From an uncultured archaeon (GTDB taxonomy: Archaea; Asgardarchaeota; Jordiarchaeia; Jordiarchaeales; Jordiarchaeaceae), in contig CAZECW010000122.1 of the NCBI GenBank assembly GCA_964510585.1, positions 1 through 18,251 on the forward strand: a DNA stretch of 18,251 nt, given 5' to 3'. The notes under the pieces are model-generated. The model made no database searches and was not told the origin of the DNA. It saw only the letters and a list, made by a program, of their open reading frames with translations. The position numbers were made by a program, and so were the translations under genes. Positions 1 to 9,635 of this stretch are shown here, piece after piece (position 1 is the first letter of the stretch; the number at the start of each line of letters is the position of its first letter).

Positions 1-575
1 CCTCTGGTAATAAACCTATTAATTTGTTCAGTTATTACCTCCTCCCAAATTTCTCTAACCGACTCCGAATCCATTGAGGCCTTTGCTTCACTTTTCTCAA
101 ATACCTTAACTGCCTTCATGGGGTGAACGTATGGCAGCAAGTAGAATCTCGCCTTCTCACCCCTCTTTGATTGCAGTTCTACATATTCTGGTTTATCAGA
201 TGCGGTGTTTATGAAGGTTTTCGCTCCCTCTGTAAATATTTCTGCTATGGTTGAGAAGAGATCTACAGGAGAGCTTCGCGCCTCATGCCTCGGCAGGTCA
301 TGGTTACCCGCTATCATAACTATTTGAATCCCATTGTCTATTAGTGGTTTGAGTACTTTTGCGAATCTTTTCATCATGGTTGTGGTAGGGTTGGAACTGT
401 GAAAAACATCACCGCAAATCACGAAGAAATCAGCATTATTGCAAACCGCGTACTTCACAACTTGCGAGAGATAGTTTTCACAGAGCAGTGTTATCTCGGG
501 AAGGGATTCCCTAGCATCAATCTTAGAGTGCCGATTTATACCATAATGAACATCCGCCAGGTGAATTATCCTCAT
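1..575 (-). CDS. mre11: Mre11/SbcD-family DNA repair metallo-nuclease, 3'-truncated by the window edge (191 codons visible)
   Basis: Not in the ORF track; manual translation from ATG at 575 gives MRIIHLADVHYG...ICGDVFH...IAGNHD...YLLPY, i.e. phosphoesterase motifs DxH, GDxF and GNHD. Preceded by GAGGAG, 22 nt after the herA stop. No stop before position 1. Confidence 0.93.
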   Translation of the reverse strand, partial: MRIIHLADVHYGINRHSKIDARESLPEITLLCENYLSQVVKYAVCNNADFFVICGDVFHSSNPTTTMMKRFAKVLKPLIDNGIQIVMIAGNHDLPRHEARSSPVDLFSTIAEIFTEGAKTFINTASDKPEYVELQSKRGEKARFYLLPYVHPMKAVKVFEKSEAKASMDSESVREIWEEVITEQINRFITR

Positions 576-597: not shown

Positions 598-2844
598 TTA
601 TGGCTCCGCAAAGCGTGCCTCTTCCCTATCTAAATCCTCCTCACTTTTTTCACTTGCTAGAACTGATGTTTTTAAATCTTCAAAAAATGTGACCTTTACT
701 GGAAATGGAGTGTCTATCACAATGTTGCTCATCACAGCTTCCCCAGTGTCTCCATGTTGAATGTAGAACTCGTATGGAGTAAAGTCAGTGGGCACCTTTC
801 TCAAAACTTCCTGTCTATCAGTTTCCTGAGGTACCTGAAGAACAGACACGAATCCCGCAGCTTGACTCACAACGAAGGGCTCAACTCCCCGCAGCGACTG
901 GAAAATGTAAAGGTACCCCATACGGTATTTCCGAGCACCGGTAGCCATCTCTGAGAGCCTCTTTATTTCAGGCTCCCCCATCCAAACAAATGATTCCGTC
1001 ATCTCCTCATTAATAAAGTAGAAAAGAGGATAAGAAGAGAATCCCGCCTTATCACTTATGAAAGCCTTCTCTCTCCAGGATTTCACCTGCTCAATAATCA
1101 GTGTTTCAAGCAAGGATCTTTCTTCCTTCTCAAATCTTGAACAATTAATTATTATCCAGTCACCATTATACTGGGCTCTCATAAGCTCATCATAGAGGCT
1201 TCCCTCAACACTCACAGGTTTAAACTGCACCTCTTCCTCATCCCATTCCGCCTGAATAACGTTGCGCAGCGATTTGGCAGACTTCATGGACCTTAAAGCA
1301 GCCTTTATCGTCTCTTTATGATGCGGTGTCCCCTCCAGGAGAGCCTTTGCATTATTTTCGTCGGCTTTAATAAACCAATTAATAGCTTGGAGAGTAACTG
1401 TGTTCAGTTTTTCTTTGCCTGACTCGTCCCTGGGAACTTTAATTTCTTCCCCGGTAACTTCGTTAACCCTCCCCTCTTTGTACAAGGCTCTAAGGAGGTC
1501 CCTTATGACAAATTCAGCCTGTTGAGAACCGGTAATTTTTGTGAAAACCCAGAAGGGAATCCGTTCCACTGGAATCCGGTACTTCTGCTCCTCAAATGGA
1601 TCAACAATTAGCAATCCATTTCCCCCCTCGGTTTTAAAGAGGGGCACTAGTTCTTTGAAGTCCTGGAAGTATTCCCCATGTTTGTCAAGGACCACGCCTC
1701 CCATTCTAAGATGTCTGCCGCGACCACGATTATGCATCAAAGCCCTCAGTAAAAGTACCTCCGCAGTGTTTGTTTTACCCCTCCCACTGAGAGCAATCAT
1801 AGCACCGTTACAGTTCTCCCCCGGCTTGAGTAAAATCCTATAAGGAAAACTTGAGCCATCAGCGTTCATAACTCCTGGAATAACCCCTATCTCCAAAGGA
1901 ATAACGTCACTATCCCTAAATTTGAAGATGGGCTCAATATCTGAGCCGCGAACCATACGAACGGGAGAACCCAGAGTTACCTCCTGCCCAGTTATTACCT
2001 TCTTCCTCCTCTTACCCTTCTCTTCAACCTCAACAATGGTCTTAGATATTCGAGCTTTAAACTCCCATTCTGTTCTCTCAACGATGACCCCGATGTGGGT
2101 GTATCCCTCATAGTCGTCCACAGCCACTAGTGGAGTACTCTTGGTATTTAAAGGCTGAGTGCATAGCACAGTAAATGCATCATTCTCGAAAGAAATCACC
2201 ACCCCCAATTCGTAACGTTTACCCAGAAGCCTGCGCATAATAGACTCCAACTGAAGAGGCGCAACCTCCGTCAACCTAGAACAGTTCACAATAGCACGTG
2301 CCAAATTGTCGGGAACAAAACCATCGATCTCGCTAAAGTATTCCACAAGCAGCCTCGCAATGTTTGCGAAATTGGTCTTACTCTCCCCTATAAGTGAAGT
2401 GAGAGTAGTTAACCAGTCAAAATTATTCACATCAACGAAAGCCTTAAGCTGCTCCTCAGTAGCAGTGTAAACAACAGAATCCAGCCGAAGCAAATCCCGG
2501 GGCTCACTAGGAATAAAACCATTGCTCCACTCACCGATACGCATACCAAAAAAGTAGCGTTCCGAAGTCCTCTCAAGCATACCCTCAAAAAACGCCTTAT
2601 TAAGCGTCGTAACCTTATCACCAAAATCAATAAGAATATTACTTAGTGCAGTAGTGGAAATCTGCTCCTCACTAAAAATAACACCTAGAGAAATTTTACC
2701 GTCCTCAACAATTTGAACAACCTGAGGCAAGCTACGAGTAACCTGCCCACCAACATCAGTCACAGAATAGTAGCTACCAATAAAGAAGTGAAGCCCCACA
2801 GTAGACTTCACAGTTCCAACCGGAGCATTAAACACCACACCCAT
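598..2844 (-). CDS. herA: HerA-family (FtsK/HerA) ATPase/helicase with an extra N-terminal HAS-barrel-like module, 748 aa
   Basis: Walker A ALSGRGKT (aa 351-358), VLDKHGEY motif, Walker B FINEE (aa 610-614), arginine-finger ARKY, IFQ and VVSQ motifs, HAS barrel aa ~208-308. Lies between nurA and mre11. Confidence 0.9.
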   Translation of the reverse strand: MGVVFNAPVGTVKSTVGLHFFIGSYYSVTDVGGQVTRSLPQVVQIVEDGKISLGVIFSEEQISTTALSNILIDFGDKVTTLNKAFFEGMLERTSERYFFGMRIGEWSNGFIPSEPRDLLRLDSVVYTATEEQLKAFVDVNNFDWLTTLTSLIGESKTNFANIARLLVEYFSEIDGFVPDNLARAIVNCSRLTEVAPLQLESIMRRLLGKRYELGVVISFENDAFTVLCTQPLNTKSTPLVAVDDYEGYTHIGVIVERTEWEFKARISKTIVEVEEKGKRRKKVITGQEVTLGSPVRMVRGSDIEPIFKFRDSDVIPLEIGVIPGVMNADGSSFPYRILLKPGENCNGAMIALSGRGKTNTAEVLLLRALMHNRGRGRHLRMGGVVLDKHGEYFQDFKELVPLFKTEGGNGLLIVDPFEEQKYRIPVERIPFWVFTKITGSQQAEFVIRDLLRALYKEGRVNEVTGEEIKVPRDESGKEKLNTVTLQAINWFIKADENNAKALLEGTPHHKETIKAALRSMKSAKSLRNVIQAEWDEEEVQFKPVSVEGSLYDELMRAQYNGDWIIINCSRFEKEERSLLETLIIEQVKSWREKAFISDKAGFSSYPLFYFINEEMTESFVWMGEPEIKRLSEMATGARKYRMGYLYIFQSLRGVEPFVVSQAAGFVSVLQVPQETDRQEVLRKVPTDFTPYEFYIQHGDTGEAVMSNIVIDTPFPVKVTFFEDLKTSVLASEKSEEDLDREEARFAEP

Positions 2845-2860
2845 AACCTTACACCTTACC

Positions 2861-4210
2861 TTAAAACAATCTCTTAGTAAGAATTTTCAGAGAATCCTTA
2901 AAACCAAACTCCAAAGCAATCATCCTAATCAACTCAGCAATCCCAGTATTAATAGTGCAAAGTCTATGCGAAATAGCTAAAACCGCAGGATAATAAGTCG
3001 GCATAATAGTAGACTGCACCAAATAGTGCAAGTAAGCCTCCTCAGGCTGAGCATAAACATACTCAACCCTAGCCCAATCAACAAGATAACCCACATAAAA
3101 AAACTCAATCTGAGTATCAGGATACCACCTACCAAGAGTATCATCATACGGCCTAACTCTCTTATTTATCTCAAAAGCCACAGTACGCTCCTCAACATTC
3201 CCAACTAAACCCTCAACCACCTGAAAATCAATAGTACGATACTCGTGAGAAAGATGCCGAGAAACAATCTCATTAATAACCCTACTTGGCTCAGGAACCC
3301 CACTTGAACGAGCCAAATCAACAGCCAAATCCATATTATCCTCAATCCAGTCCACAACAGTCTCCGCCACCTCATTCGCAGGATTCAAGTAATAACTATA
3401 AGTATGATCCAACAAATTCATAATAGTATCAATAATATCATGAGACTTACTAGAAACCACCACACCAATCAAAGGAGTGTCAAAACGCTTACAACAATCA
3501 AACAGTCTCCTCTGAGCCTCAATCAAACGAGTATAATGAGAACCACGAAAATCCCGAAAATACATGCTGGAAATTGGGCGATCAAAGAATGCTACAGTCC
3601 GTCCCCTCATCGGCTTTAAATGCTTCAGCTCACAATTCTCCTTATGAATGGGGCAACCAAACTGCTCAGACCTACAGTTAAGAGGCTCCCCATGCAACCG
3701 GTGAAGCATACAACGCAGCCCCTGTGTCTCCGCCTCAAACATGTCAACATCCAGAGCCCCCTCAACATTAAGTTTACTGGAAAATCCGCCGTGAAACTTA
3801 ACTGGATTATCTCCCGGTACGTGAACTACGCCCTTAAACCTCACGACACCTCCCTGAGACATGATAAACTTGGAGCCGTCACCGCCCACATACAGTGTAG
3901 GATTGTCTTTACAGTGGGACAAAACCCACTTCGACCTCTCACTCAAGTCAGCAACTGGTTTCTCAGGGTTAAAGTAGGGTGGCTTGCGTGTGGGAGAGGA
4001 AATATCCTCCCGCAAGAGGGCCTTGGAACTGGGCCTATAGTTTTTGAAGGCGTGTGGGAAAATTCTGCGGAGAAGTTCCCCTATTTTTAGTAGTTTCTGG
4101 TTCTGCTTTCTTTCCTCTTCCAAGGACTTTATGATGGAGATTATTTCCTCTTTTAGGAGAGTTGAGACTTTGGTCACCCCCCACTTTTGGGGATAATATA
4201 TTTTTACCAT
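2861..4210 (-). CDS. nurA: NurA-family 5'-3' nuclease (RNase H-like fold), 449 aa; true start may be GTG at 4177
   Basis: YVGGDGS (first catalytic Asp, D111), MFEAE, FFD (second Asp, D210), RVE, YPAVLAISH and C-terminal KR motifs. Ends 16 nt upstream of herA. Confidence 0.85.
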   Translation of the reverse strand: MVKIYYPQKWGVTKVSTLLKEEIISIIKSLEEERKQNQKLLKIGELLRRIFPHAFKNYRPSSKALLREDISSPTRKPPYFNPEKPVADLSERSKWVLSHCKDNPTLYVGGDGSKFIMSQGGVVRFKGVVHVPGDNPVKFHGGFSSKLNVEGALDVDMFEAETQGLRCMLHRLHGEPLNCRSEQFGCPIHKENCELKHLKPMRGRTVAFFDRPISSMYFRDFRGSHYTRLIEAQRRLFDCCKRFDTPLIGVVVSSKSHDIIDTIMNLLDHTYSYYLNPANEVAETVVDWIEDNMDLAVDLARSSGVPEPSRVINEIVSRHLSHEYRTIDFQVVEGLVGNVEERTVAFEINKRVRPYDDTLGRWYPDTQIEFFYVGYLVDWARVEYVYAQPEEAYLHYLVQSTIMPTYYPAVLAISHRLCTINTGIAELIRMIALEFGFKDSLKILTKRLF

Positions 4211-4264: not shown

Positions 4265-4286
4265 CATTTTAGGTTTGGCGAAACCA

Positions 4287-4964
4287 ATGAAAACCATAGT
4301 AGACTGGCTAGTATTACCAGTAAACCCAGACACATCAATAAGAGACCACTTCATAAGCAACGAGTATTTCCCCGCACACCATTGGCTAATAATATACAAT
4401 CCAAAAGATCCTAAAAACAGTAGCGCCTGCCAGCAAATCCGAGAAATCCTGGAAACCGCAAGAATATCAAAATATGAAACCCTAGAAGCCAACCCCGAAA
4501 ACTACTACGACGTACTATTCAGCTTCGACCAGTGGCTCCAAGAAAAAAAACTTGAACAAAACACAACCATCGCAGTAAACGGAGCCACAAACGCCATACC
4601 TGCCATAAACGCAGTAAGAGACACACTCTCAAGAAGGCAATACAACGGATTCATATTCTCATTCAAAAAAAAGGACGGCATAATCTACGGAGAACCACAA
4701 ATAACCCCACTAAACACCAACACACTAACAGAAGACCACTTCAAAATAATAAAAACACTCCTAAAACTAAACGGAAAAGCCCAAAGCCAAAAAGAACTAC
4801 TAGAACACCTCACACAAACCGACGAAAAATACAGCAAATACAAAAACGACCTAAACACCGGAAAAAGAGTACTATCCTACTACCTAAGACAACTAAAAAA
4901 ACTAAACATCATAAAAATAGAACACGAAAAAAACGAAAGACAAACAACAATAACACTAACATAA
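4287..4964 (+). CDS. CARF-like (Csa3/DUF6293-like) Rossmann domain plus C-terminal winged-helix transcriptional regulator; ATG 4287 preferred over TTG 4275
   Basis: N-terminal hhLPV...R, NPENYYDV and IAVNGAT segments resemble DUF6293/Csa3-type sensor domains. C-terminal SQKELLEHL...VLSYYLRQLKKLNII...TITLT has wHTH form. Confidence 0.65.
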   Translation: MKTIVDWLVLPVNPDTSIRDHFISNEYFPAHHWLIIYNPKDPKNSSACQQIREILETARISKYETLEANPENYYDVLFSFDQWLQEKKLEQNTTIAVNGATNAIPAINAVRDTLSRRQYNGFIFSFKKKDGIIYGEPQITPLNTNTLTEDHFKIIKTLLKLNGKAQSQKELLEHLTQTDEKYSKYKNDLNTGKRVLSYYLRQLKKLNIIKIEHEKNERQTTITLT

Positions 4965-5653: not shown

Positions 5654-7132
5654 CTATAAGCGGAATTTTCCAGGGCTTAGTATTCTATTAGGGTCAAGGG
5701 CATTCTTTACGGATTTTAGAAATTCAAAGTAGGTGCCTGTGAGTGTTCCTGTATCGATTAGTGCACGGCTCATTATTTCTCCAGGATTTATTGGCATCAC
5801 ACCCTCCTTGAGCATGAACTGGACTTGGCTTTCCCACAATCTTCTATTCAGCTCTCTGAGCTCTGGCCTATCCCAAACTAATAGACCAGCATCTACTACA
5901 GCTGTAGTGTGAGAACAGAGGAATGCATTTGAAACTCCTGTTATGGCTCTAGCCTTAGCAAGTTCCTCTCCATATGCCTCTCCCCACTCGTCCACTTTTT
6001 TAAAAATGTACGGGAATCGGTGAATAGGAATGTGGAAGTCGACACTACATGGAACGGATCCTGGACCGAGGCCACCCCATAGACCGTGCCAATTCAGCCA
6101 GTGACCCTGTTCCTCATAGTGCCATTTTGCATAGTTTCCATCCTTAATTTCTGGGCCCAGTTCTTCTCCACCATACTTCTTAATTGTTTTATCCAAAATT
6201 TTCACATTCACCTCTAATTCTTCCGGCGTCTCAGCCTCCATCGTATACCAAAAGATGGCCCTATCTATACCCTTCCAAGGTTTAAAAATTATGGTCTCTG
6301 CTAATCCTCCTGTCATTCCCAGCACCATTAGTTGTGGGAGATAAAAAGAATCGTATATTCCAAGCTCCCCTCTTTTCCTCCAATCCAACCAGATTTTGGT
6401 CGTGTTTTCGGTTGAGGGTTCCTCCAGTGTAAAAGTTTTACATTCATGATATTCTGGCTTTGGATAAATCTTGAGAGTGGCCTTGGTTTTTATTCCCATT
6501 ATTCCAGCATCACCTAGGAATAAACCTGTAAGATCCGGCCCGAACCCAAATCTACAGAATGGTTCCTTTGTATATAAGCCAGCATTAGATCCCGTGTAAA
6601 TTATGTTTCCATTTGGGAGTACAACTTCCAGAGCCACACACTGTTCGTTGCAAGTACCATATTTTGCCGCTCCGCCACCACCCATAGAGTTGTTTGATAG
6701 TCCACCTCCAATGGTGGCAGACATTCCACTTCCTGGACCAAGGTTCCCAGTGTAGTATCCCATTTCACTGAGTTTCATATTCAACTGAGCCCAAGTTATA
6801 CCTGTTTCTACTGTAACCGTGAGGGTATTTTCGTTTATATCTAGAATTTTATTCATTCTAAGCATGTCCAGGACTATTCCACCACTCTCAATGGGTTTTG
6901 AGCCACCTACTAAATCGCAGCCACCACCGCGTGGAACTATGGGAATCTTATACCTATTAGCAACTTGCACTACTTCAGCCACTTCCTCCGTGTTTCCCGG
7001 CTTTACCACAAATTCTGGCAACCTCTCAAGCGCCCCATCAACAACTCTAGAGTAGGAGTAAAGGACAAAATCCTCATCCGAAACATATTCGGAACCCACA
7101 GCATCCACTAAAGCCCTAAACACTTTACTCAT
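5654..7132 (-). CDS. FAD-linked oxidoreductase, FAD-binding PCMH / GlcD-alkylglycerone-phosphate-synthase-like superfamily, 492 aa
   Basis: PRGGG, ATIGG, LEVVLPNG, GPDLTGLFLGDAG.MGI and C-terminal LDPNRILSPGK motifs. Confidence 0.9.
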   Translation of the reverse strand: MSKVFRALVDAVGSEYVSDEDFVLYSYSRVVDGALERLPEFVVKPGNTEEVAEVVQVANRYKIPIVPRGGGCDLVGGSKPIESGGIVLDMLRMNKILDINENTLTVTVETGITWAQLNMKLSEMGYYTGNLGPGSGMSATIGGGLSNNSMGGGGAAKYGTCNEQCVALEVVLPNGNIIYTGSNAGLYTKEPFCRFGFGPDLTGLFLGDAGIMGIKTKATLKIYPKPEYHECKTFTLEEPSTENTTKIWLDWRKRGELGIYDSFYLPQLMVLGMTGGLAETIIFKPWKGIDRAIFWYTMEAETPEELEVNVKILDKTIKKYGGEELGPEIKDGNYAKWHYEEQGHWLNWHGLWGGLGPGSVPCSVDFHIPIHRFPYIFKKVDEWGEAYGEELAKARAITGVSNAFLCSHTTAVVDAGLLVWDRPELRELNRRLWESQVQFMLKEGVMPINPGEIMSRALIDTGTLTGTYFEFLKSVKNALDPNRILSPGKFRL

Positions 7133-7721: not shown

Positions 7722-8426
7722 GTGTCAGACCTTAAGATTTCTGACTTCAAAATGTTTGAAAAAGCCCCGTATGAAGACCCCGATCCCCGTGTCTTGACAG
7801 AGCTCACCATTAGTGGGATACGCGGAGAAGAAAAAATATATGGCCCCGTATTCACCGCCAGAGTGATAAGGTACGCCTTAAATCTTATGGCTCAAAAAGG
7901 AGAAGAAGCACCCCAAGACATCAAAGACTTAGACCAGCTAAAAGAGTATCTACTCTCAAAACCATTCAAAATTCCTCCCTACTGTGTAGCCATGTATGCC
8001 CAAGTTAAGGCTGAAAACGAGTTGCAAGGCCAAACCGGAGCCGGAACGCGGGTGGAAATGATGAACATGACCAAAAGGGCGGTGGAACTAGCGGGAACCC
8101 AAATTAATAGAATCCTCGACATTGACGCCATAATGCAAAGAATACGCCAAGTAGGAGTTTCAATGAAATTGGTTGCCTCTGAAATGGGATACAAGAAAAA
8201 CGGAGATGGTAGCCTAGATTTAATTTATCTCCGGTGCCCCTTTTTGGACACCTGCCAGTTAGCTTCGGATGAGGGCCTGTTGAAACGCCCAAATGGCAGA
8301 GCCAGATGTGGAGTACTCGGAGAATTTGGTTGCCAGTTACTTAAACTATATACTAGTTACGAGTGGGACTATGAACTCTTAGAAGCATATAAGCCACACT
8401 GCATAGTGAAACTATACATAGTCTAA
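7722..8426 (+). CDS. Hypothetical protein, 234 aa, with Cys-rich C-terminal half resembling V4R/MetOD1/ATC-hydrolase-like folds
   Basis: GTG start after GTGAGG. CPFLDTC...RCG...GC...HC pattern near the C-terminus. Long clean ORF. Confidence 0.7.
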   Translation: MSDLKISDFKMFEKAPYEDPDPRVLTELTISGIRGEEKIYGPVFTARVIRYALNLMAQKGEEAPQDIKDLDQLKEYLLSKPFKIPPYCVAMYAQVKAENELQGQTGAGTRVEMMNMTKRAVELAGTQINRILDIDAIMQRIRQVGVSMKLVASEMGYKKNGDGSLDLIYLRCPFLDTCQLASDEGLLKRPNGRARCGVLGEFGCQLLKLYTSYEWDYELLEAYKPHCIVKLYIV

Positions 8427-8598
8427 TTATTCGTTTATTTAGCGTGAGGCTTCGGAAAAGTTTCACATAGACAAAAATGAAAATATTCGTGCAGAAGATT
8501 TAGTTCAAACTCTGGTACTTCTGCTCTGAATCTAGTTTCATTAATATTTTTTACTTAGGAGTGAGTTTAAGTAAATTGTTCTTTTTACAAATTTTTGG

Positions 8599-9453
8599 TT
8601 ATTTGTGCTTAATTACCTCCTTTACTTTTTCGCTTTCATTGGTGAATTTTGGTTTTCTTTTCTCGCTGAAGGCTTTTGGTCCCTCGTAGAAATCGTGGTT
8701 AAGTAACAGATTCCAGAAGAGCATGCTCTCAATTCTCAAGCCTTCCTCCAGGGGAGTTCCAATACCCCTTATTAATGCTTCTTTGTCTGTTCTTATTGAT
8801 CCTTGGGGGAAGGAGCATATTGTTCGGGCCAATTCTTTCGCGCGTTCCAAGACCTTGTCTTTGGGCACAATCTCGTTTACCAGCCCGATTCTGTAGGCTT
8901 CTTGAGCGTCGATTTCTTTTCCTGTGAGAATTAGTTCCATGGCTCTTCCCAGGCCGACTACTCGCCATAGTCTTTGGGTTCCGCCGTCTCCTAGCCCCAC
9001 GTTCCATCTTCGGTTCAGCACTCCGAATTTTGCGTCTTCGGAGCAGATTCTTATGTCTGCTGCGAGGGCTATTTCCAGTCCTCCAGCGTAGCACATGCCG
9101 TTTATGGCGGCAATGATGGGTTTGAAGATTTGTATTCCTCGAGTTAAGCCTCCGAAGCCGGGTCCCTGGTAGGCGTTTTTTCGGGCAAAGTTAACCTTTT
9201 GCTCTTCTATGAAGGGGTGCCAGTTTTTGAGGTCGGCCCCAGTGCAGAAGGCTCTGTTTCCGGCTCCAGTTATTATCGCCACGTAGGCTTCATCATCCAT
9301 GTCGAATTTTTTCCAAACTTCTGCTAGTTCCAGATTCGTTTGAGGATCGATACAGTTTAAGACTTGGGGCCTATTGATGGTAATTATAAGGATGTGGTCT
9401 TCCTTCTCACATATCACGTTTTTGTACACACCATAATTTTTCAATTCTGTCAT
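8599..9453 (-). CDS. Enoyl-CoA hydratase/isomerase (crotonase superfamily); start ATG 9453 preferred over 9468
   Basis: FCTGADL, AAINGMCYAGGLE, DGGTQRL and AYRIGLVNEIVP motifs. GGAGG lies upstream of ATG 9453. Confidence 0.93.
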   Translation of the reverse strand: MTELKNYGVYKNVICEKEDHILIITINRPQVLNCIDPQTNLELAEVWKKFDMDDEAYVAIITGAGNRAFCTGADLKNWHPFIEEQKVNFARKNAYQGPGFGGLTRGIQIFKPIIAAINGMCYAGGLEIALAADIRICSEDAKFGVLNRRWNVGLGDGGTQRLWRVVGLGRAMELILTGKEIDAQEAYRIGLVNEIVPKDKVLERAKELARTICSFPQGSIRTDKEALIRGIGTPLEEGLRIESMLFWNLLLNHDFYEGPKAFSEKRKPKFTNESEKVKEVIKHK

Positions 9454-9635
9454 ACCATTTTCCTCCATTATAAATCTCGCATTTCAGTAACATAGTATAA
9501 TTTTATTTGGTTAGGTTTTGTCGGCGATTTAAGAATCTTATGATTCCTCATCTCAACTTGTGGTTCCAAAACTGGAAACTACTAGGTGAGGCTCCTCTGC
9601 TTGGAGAAATCGAATCGAATAGTGTACATTGCTGG

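Follow-up and report, generated by a model that had tools for sequence, protein, structure and literature searches.

A long HerA with a conserved N-terminal extension in an accessory NurA-HerA operon of Jordarchaeia

The 18,251-nucleotide stretch of DNA analyzed here (hereafter "the window"), taken from contig C122 (CAZECW010000122.1) of a 3.78-Mb Asgard metagenome-assembled genome (MAG; G000) of the genus Jordarchaeum/'Freyarchaeota', encodes a complete HerA (HerA*, P0001) whose N-terminal extension is specific to its family and evolves under purifying selection, next to a predicted, diverged NurA nuclease (NurA*, P0002). Among public loci, that of Ca. Jordarchaeum madagascariense is nearest, with 89% identity at the protein level. 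Archaea resect DNA ends with the HerA-NurA motor, and several anti-phage systems have also adopted HerA rings as a scaffold that holds the effector on its barrel face. Taken as a whole, the explanation that we favor, and hold to be moderately probable, is that HerA* serves as translocase in an extra NurA*-HerA* pair, rare and restricted to Asgard archaea, in which the extension would form an adaptor crown and which would process DNA ends in defense or in CRISPR adaptation. An earlier sequence-only reading of the same stretch had interpreted the extension as a second HAS barrel, derived from a stand-alone partner gene that became fused to herA.

A complete HerA within an intact long reading frame

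From aa (amino acid) ~210 to 748, HerA* is a complete HerA, with a HAS barrel, a RecA-like ATPase, and a helical insert. The barrel lies immediately ahead of an ASCE P-loop ATPase that includes Walker A and Walker B motifs along with the HerA central domain, the latter being the only domain recovered by Pfam (aa 349-496; PF01935, E = 1.6e-8, above cutoff). Within the Walker A motif, G356, K357, and N359 are invariant across the long-HerA family, and E613 and E614, the NEE of Walker B, are invariant in four close homologs. A full-length AlphaFold2 (AF2) model built from an 8-sequence alignment, with a mean predicted local distance difference test score (pLDDT) of 66.8, matched HerA structures by Foldseek at E-values of 5e-16 to 1e-11, and the ATPase part aligns structurally to HerA, VirB4, and TrwB ATPases. 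In a profile-profile (hhalign) alignment, 120 canonical HerAs mapped to aa 187-745 with a probability of 98.4%. Because Foldseek matches the model to HerA structures and the profile alignment places canonical HerA on aa 187-745, the residues before ~210 represent an extension, and the barrel that the sequence-only reading had located at aa ~208-308, ahead of Walker A, can be accepted as a genuine HAS barrel. The protein scored only 35 bits against DUF87, compared to 96-117 bits for the three top-scoring paralogs, canonical HerA among these. Based on its membership in the HerA family, HerA* is predicted to form a hexameric ring that translocates double-stranded DNA.

At 748 aa, HerA* exceeds the genome's own canonical HerA (516 aa) by ~230 aa, in agreement with the earlier estimate of ~200 aa beyond an ordinary HerA. 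This length is not an assembly artifact, since window positions 2130-2984 are spanned, free of gaps and indels, by contigs that come from four separate hot-spring metagenome studies. Nine homologs are likewise unbroken across the aa 200-207 region, and the stop or frameshift that would have split the open reading frame (ORF) at this point was found in none of them. We also considered an internal start at M203, which would yield a short HerA of canonical length, and rejected it, as M203 is not conserved beyond the genus and the 200 codons upstream of it are under purifying selection. Separately, in one metagenomic relative (L058:668-905; 40% identity) the codon of the conserved Gln61, CAG in the other copies, is replaced by an in-frame TAG, the only interruption of the long herA*, which is called there as two genes of 61 and 671 aa; sequencing error, nonsense mutation, and read-through are all possible explanations.

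Conservation and possible folds of the extension

Two parts make up the extension (aa 1-~209), a beta-rich module (aa ~9-128) and, after it, a helix bundle (aa 130-209). The bundle appears at aa ~130-209 in both the full-length and the N-only AF2 models, with pLDDT values of ~55-85, confirming the helical block that had been anticipated at aa ~138-207. Across 10 homologs, conserved positions include G10, G23, P40, Q61, F98, R102, P115, A128, and F136. Identity to distant members of the family is 27% in the aa 1-137 module and 28-31% in the ATPase domain, but only 15-18% in the true HAS barrel, with a family-wide identity of ~18-27% over the N-terminal part. Relative to the related locus L002, codon changes in the N-terminal module are mostly synonymous (40 synonymous, 14 non-synonymous), as they are in the ATPase part (128 and 40, respectively). 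Taken together, the conserved positions, an identity on par with that of the ATPase domain, and this synonymous excess argue that the N-terminal module is functional.

Which fold this module adopts is less clear. No significant structural or profile match was obtained for aa 1-137 or 1-140 with Foldseek against the PDB and AFDB, with profile searches, or with Atlas searches. Specifically, a profile search of the PDB with aa 1-140 matched a de novo designed protein alone (E = 0.93), Atlas feature searches with aa 1-207 and aa 1-140 yielded no usable match, and Pfam returned nothing at E <=1 for aa 1-137, a test without power given that the Pfam HAS-barrel model also misses the true barrel. By hhalign, the true barrel (aa 205-345) aligned to canonical barrels over 12 columns (E = 0.096), no better than the N-terminal module did, and sequence tests of HAS identity are therefore powerless here.

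One possible interpretation, which we consider somewhat doubtful, is that aa 1-137 form a second, diverged HAS-type barrel that arose by duplication, either internally or from another herA paralog, so that each hexamer would carry two stacked barrel rings. The order of elements resembles that of the canonical HerA barrel of the same genome, i.e., hairpins at aa 9-25 and 41-60, a helical insert of ~35 aa, a strand at 97-106, a Pro-containing loop, a last strand at 118-127, and a helix at 130-139. Consistent with such a duplication, hhalign produced one co-linear alignment of 87 columns between aa 1-140 and the N-termini of 120 canonical HerAs (E = 0.083), and its sole alignment of the module to the second barrel joined the two tails only (24 columns, E = 0.22). 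When the N-terminal model was compared to the PDB with Foldseek, 12 of the top 50 rows were HerA-family chains (TdpA, D. radiodurans HerA, and Sso HerA; best E = 0.069), while two weak AFDB rows (E = 0.05-0.1) corresponded to a 'HerA barrel domain' protein and to an ATP-binding protein matched at its N-terminus. However, none of these matches is significant. The N-only AF2 model (pLDDT values of ~30-60) places strands at aa 19-26, 41-47, 50-60, 97-106, and 118-127, the third and fourth of which are separated by two helices, whereas the full-length model makes aa 115-127 helical instead of a strand. The Atlas ESMFold model of aa 1-140 is nearer to GHKL/MutL-type alpha+beta sandwiches, to which it bears a weak resemblance (template-modeling (TM) score 0.33-0.38). 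The missing Pfam HAS-barrel match, uninformative as noted above, adds little to this side of the argument.

The tail motif that had led the sequence-only reading to a HAS barrel at aa 1-137 can thus be recognized as a pattern, if not a significant one, but the AlphaFold and Foldseek comparisons proposed as a check did not demonstrate a HAS barrel, and a double HAS ring is not established. For aa 1-128, a degenerate HAS-like or other small barrel is possible, an alpha+beta sandwich is about as plausible, each of the two falls short of being probable, and other folds make up the remainder.

Origin of the extension

The same sequence-only reading had derived the extension from a stand-alone HAS-barrel partner, formerly encoded between nurA and herA, that fused to the 5' end of herA, and had proposed checking whether the closest relatives of the N-terminal region are stand-alone ORFs. 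This was not the case. A phmmer search with aa 1-330 against 1.84 billion representative proteins gave 7 matches, among which the real relatives are four long HerA-type proteins of 671, 803, 751, and 525 aa (those of 671 and 525 aa being incomplete records). The others are two weak matches to short stretches of 2364-aa and 1099-aa proteins, and one 61-aa fragment, which is no separate domain gene and corresponds instead to the start of the TAG-interrupted copy in L058. Screening of 400 Asgard genomes in all six frames with an aa 1-212 profile detected fused forms only (748-780 aa, E <=1e-10), and the module was confined in these genomes to this genus and one other family, the latter with fused proteins of 756 and 780 aa. 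In the MAG itself, a hidden Markov model search of all ORFs found no paralog of the N-terminal module, with neither this module nor the true barrel retrieving other HerA barrels. Word-indexed protein searches with P0001 or its alignment returned three close homologs only, and a locus search of genome contigs with the same queries returned only Jordarchaeum/'Freyarchaeota' contigs. Overall, no free-standing relative of aa 1-207 was found among the 1.84 billion representatives, in the six-frame search of 400 Asgard genomes, or in the genome itself.

Some circumstances would fit a fused partner: the extension sits precisely where an intervening gene would have stood, and stand-alone proteins annotated as 'HerA barrel domain-containing' do exist, for example a 246-aa AFDB cluster representative that is a weak match (E = 0.047). 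Yet the module is joined to HerA in every member of the family, including the deepest branches (G075 and G076), and the sole split copy, L058, is broken at Gln61, within the module and not at a domain border. "HerP", named in the sequence-only reading as a HerA/NurA partner described in Thermus, was also not found, as a whole-word literature search for 'HerP' and 'HerA' yielded unrelated papers only; Thermus does have HepA, a HerA homolog. The partner-fusion proposal is therefore without support; we consider it very improbable, and a fused partner gene is not established.

A diverged NurA partner

No Pfam entry matched P0002, including the NurA family itself (PF09376). Nevertheless, comparison to NurA clusters in the Atlas gave a feature score of 0.93, and the structural comparison to one NurA cluster gave TM scores of 0.63/0.76 over 324 aligned residues. 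The residue His415 is invariant in 6/6 homologs and the DRP motif (D210) is kept in the 5/5 that cover it, while the GDGS position (D110) is an Asp in two Jordarchaeum copies only, the g30 copies having an Asp two residues earlier. P0002 is thus best described as a diverged NurA with a predicted RNase H-like fold and putative Asp, Asp, and His catalytic positions. A homolog of P0002 was found immediately upstream of every long HerA examined.

Two additional features of nurA* were noted. A Cys/His-rich insert (window 3620-3712, aa ~167-197) is present in the two Jordarchaeum copies only and, being absent from the homologs in L055 and L056, represents a genus-level insertion and not a feature of the family. 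Separately, a piece of ~100 bp (window 3948-4048, aa ~54-87) recurs at G000:C68:910-1059 and G000:C182:1-105, with 58-80% protein identity, and in other metagenome assemblies it occurs on contigs whose sequences differ to its left and right. This piece represents either a repeated element or an N-terminal peptide motif that is shared.

Gene order, neighbors, and accessory status

Three consecutive minus-strand genes are found in the window, namely nurA*, herA*, and the start of mre11 (Table 1). The mre11 piece matches Metallophos (E = 2.9e-12) and NCBIfam Mre11/SbcD models, and the remainder of Mre11 is encoded by positions 1-969 of contig C191 in the same MAG, at 84% identity to L002. There it is followed by an 864-aa open frame (918-3509) that we read as Rad50 from its position; the gene at this position in L002 matches AAA_23 (E = 6e-28), SbcC_Walker_B (E = 1.8e-9), and Rad50_zn_hook (E = 3.7e-4, under the Pfam cutoff). 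The order nurA*-herA*-mre11-rad50 is contiguous in L002, L060, and L061, and split over C122 and C191 in the genome studied here.

Table 1 Features of the HerA*-NurA* locus, with coordinates in the window
Feature	Coordinates	Strand	Remarks
herA* (P0001, 'long HerA')	598..2844	minus	One uninterrupted ORF, 748 aa
Beta-rich N-terminal module, aa 1-137	2434..2844	minus	Helical insert of ~35 aa (aa 61-95); AF2 at low pLDDT and conservation
4-5-helix bundle, aa 138-209	2218..2433	minus	Joins N-terminal module to HAS barrel; both AF2 models
Canonical HAS barrel, aa 210-310	1915..2217	minus	
RecA-like ASCE ATPase with helical insert, aa 311-748	598..1914	minus	
Walker A, aa 353-359	1768-1788	minus	
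Walker B, aa 607-614	1003-1026	minus	Ends ..INEE
nurA* (P0002), divergent NurA-like nuclease	2861..4210	minus	449 aa; 16 nucleotides upstream of herA*
mre11/sbcD, N-terminal part	3..575	minus	Leaves contig end, resumes on G000:C191, followed by rad50
Candidate CARF/Csa3-like regulator	4275..4964	plus	229 aa; divergent, head-to-head with operon

The partners of the pair vary between loci. Mre11-Rad50 is found downstream in L002, L023, L058, and L060, DUF2797-Cas1-Cas2(-Cas4) in L055 and L056, which belong to another Asgard family, and a TIR-like gene with TnpB in L024. The upstream flank of L060 includes a DndD/SMC-like ATPase and a DEAD/ResIII helicase, along with weak or faint matches to a Dnd-associated family and a methyltransferase. 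Across from the operon, the window regulator matches Csa3_N (E = 3.3e-4, under the Pfam cutoff) and PADLOC CARF models (E = 1.1e-5). Head-to-head genes encoding 224-232 aa in L002, L059, L060, and L055 have weak Csa3_N, HFX_2341_N, or winged helix-turn-helix (wHTH) matches; the Csa3_N matches of these regulators range from E = 3.3e-4 to 1.4e-3, and all Pfam matches are under the cutoffs. Csa3a has been reported to connect the activation of CRISPR with genes of DNA repair (PMC5587795). In L055 and L056, the gene that separates the long herA* from cas1-cas2(-cas4) (L055:1247-2296, L056:2310-3311) encodes a DUF2797 protein of 333-349 aa, which may be an uncharacterized component of the adaptation module.

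The operon is an accessory, non-essential second copy. A canonical nurA-herA-mre11 locus is found on contig C118 of the same genome, and each of the four congeners checked for it (G002-G005) has the canonical Mre11 locus. In contrast, searches for herA* and nurA* came up empty in three of six congeners (G003, G004, and G005, of which the last is a closed genome). The four genes do cluster as in a housekeeping double-strand-break repair operon, but they do not belong to a conserved core gene set of the lineage. In total, the genome carries 8 DUF87/HerA-type loci (7 besides P0001) and 4 loci matching Pfam NurA, P0002 not among them, an unusually large NurA/HerA complement. Giant forms, in open frames that reach 980 and 1016 aa, are part of this complement, as is a 647-aa open frame with a NurA-like match. 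Given these several pairs in Jordarchaeia, repair inventories of Asgard archaea should separate core from accessory NurA-HerA copies.

Elsewhere in the window, the enoyl-CoA hydratase region (~8470-9490) is the only part with 81-90% identical orthologs in G003-G005, so that the strain-specific region seems to reach past the operon to ~7.6 kb. Within this part of the window, matches of the FAD-oxidase gene (5654-7132) in congeners are only 67-68% identical. A 234-aa ORF without a Pfam match (7722-8426) belongs to a multi-copy family, with dozens of 65-72% identical DNA matches across G005.

Proposed function

In solved HerA-NurA complexes, NurA docks on the HAS barrel (PMC9960219). Since the extension precedes this barrel in the chain and is joined to its N-terminus, we infer that it must lie on the NurA-docking face; this part of the sequence-only reading agrees with chain connectivity and with the solved complexes, whereas its description of the extension as a second barrel ring is not established. 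Six copies of the extension would then crown the HAS face of the hexamer, where NurA dimers dock. The most likely role of this crown would be to couple the ring, as adaptor or gate, to the equally atypical, co-inherited NurA*, and it may also handle the DNA end as it passes between nuclease and motor. The pair itself appears modular, being combined with Mre11-Rad50 in Jordarchaeia and two metagenomic relatives, with DUF2797-Cas1-Cas2-Cas4 in another Asgard family, and usually with a small head-to-head gene. Because of this modularity with varied partners, and of a neighbor that is weakly CARF/Csa3- or wHTH-like, the most likely task of the machine is DNA-end processing in defense or CRISPR adaptation, and not in routine repair.

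Several observations weigh against this proposal. First, there is no confident 3-D model of aa 1-128, and the position of the extension relative to the ring and to NurA* follows from chain connectivity alone; co-folding of aa 1-212 with NurA* scored 0.00 without controls, which is evidence neither way. Second, the CARF assignment draws on Pfam matches below cutoff, and BLASTP detected no similarity between the regulator of the window and that of L055. Third, the window includes no CRISPR array (no tandem repeat array was found) and no cas genes, with the only Cas1 of the genome located on contig C92, and linkage to Mre11-Rad50 would fit a second repair system equally well.

Accordingly, the operon could alternatively be a second, diverged housekeeping system for double-strand-break repair, with the extension as a lineage-specific decoration and no link to defense or CRISPR. 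Both the complete nurA-herA-mre11-rad50 set and the lack of cas genes or an array in the window speak for this scenario. However, only some members of one genus have the operon, although none of the congeners checked has lost the canonical locus, the same pair occurs within a cas1-cas2-cas4 operon elsewhere with another copy beside a TIR-like gene and TnpB, and a CARF-like neighbor and defense-type flanks are present. We regard a second housekeeping repair system as unlikely.

Returning to the adaptor-crown proposal, a more far-reaching version, to which we give rather little credence, would treat the regulator-nurA*-long-herA* triad as a mobile Asgard cassette for DNA-end processing that is switched on by a CARF-type sensor, with the crown as a docking platform for interchangeable partners. 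Combined with Mre11-Rad50, such a cassette would destroy or resect the ends of invading DNA, whereas combined with Cas1-Cas2-Cas4 it would supply prespacers, as an archaeal counterpart of RecBCD/AddAB in bacterial spacer acquisition. A conserved domain on the barrel face of a pair whose partners are Mre11-Rad50 in some loci and Cas1-Cas2-Cas4 in others would reveal how a machine for resection can be given new targets, and could provide a direct handle on prespacer generation in archaea.

Comparison with known systems

Compared to canonical archaeal HerA, e.g., that of Saccharolobus solfataricus (PDB 4D2I) or the Thermococcus kodakarensis HerA-NurA complex (9X1M), HerA* has ~210 extra N-terminal residues, is encoded in the order nurA-herA-mre11-rad50, and is an accessory and not a universal copy. 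Its identity to the canonical HerA of its own genome is very low, at 22% over the last 184 aa. HerA* also differs from the defense HerA complexes (Sir2-HerA/Nezha, DUF4297-HerA, TdpAB, and DndH) in that its partner is a NurA-type nuclease of predicted RNase H fold, and not Sir2, DUF4297, or TdpB; PADLOC returned only weak generic HerA and mad8 matches for HerA* (E ~5e-5).

A further parallel is offered by Thermoproteales, in which CRISPR-associated nurA-csm6(CARF)-herA clusters ('Cas HerA' and 'Cas NurA') have been described (PMC3396285, PMC3973734). Like these, NurA*-HerA* is a paralogous pair that exists beside the repair pair, has a candidate CARF-type neighbor, and is linked to cas1-cas2-cas4 in relatives (L055 and L056). 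Unlike these, for which the cited papers report no N-terminal extension, HerA* is extended, and its partners in the window are Mre11-Rad50 and not cas genes. Overall, HerA* is an architectural addition to a known class of accessory, CRISPR- or defense-linked NurA-HerA pairs, found so far in few Asgard lineages.

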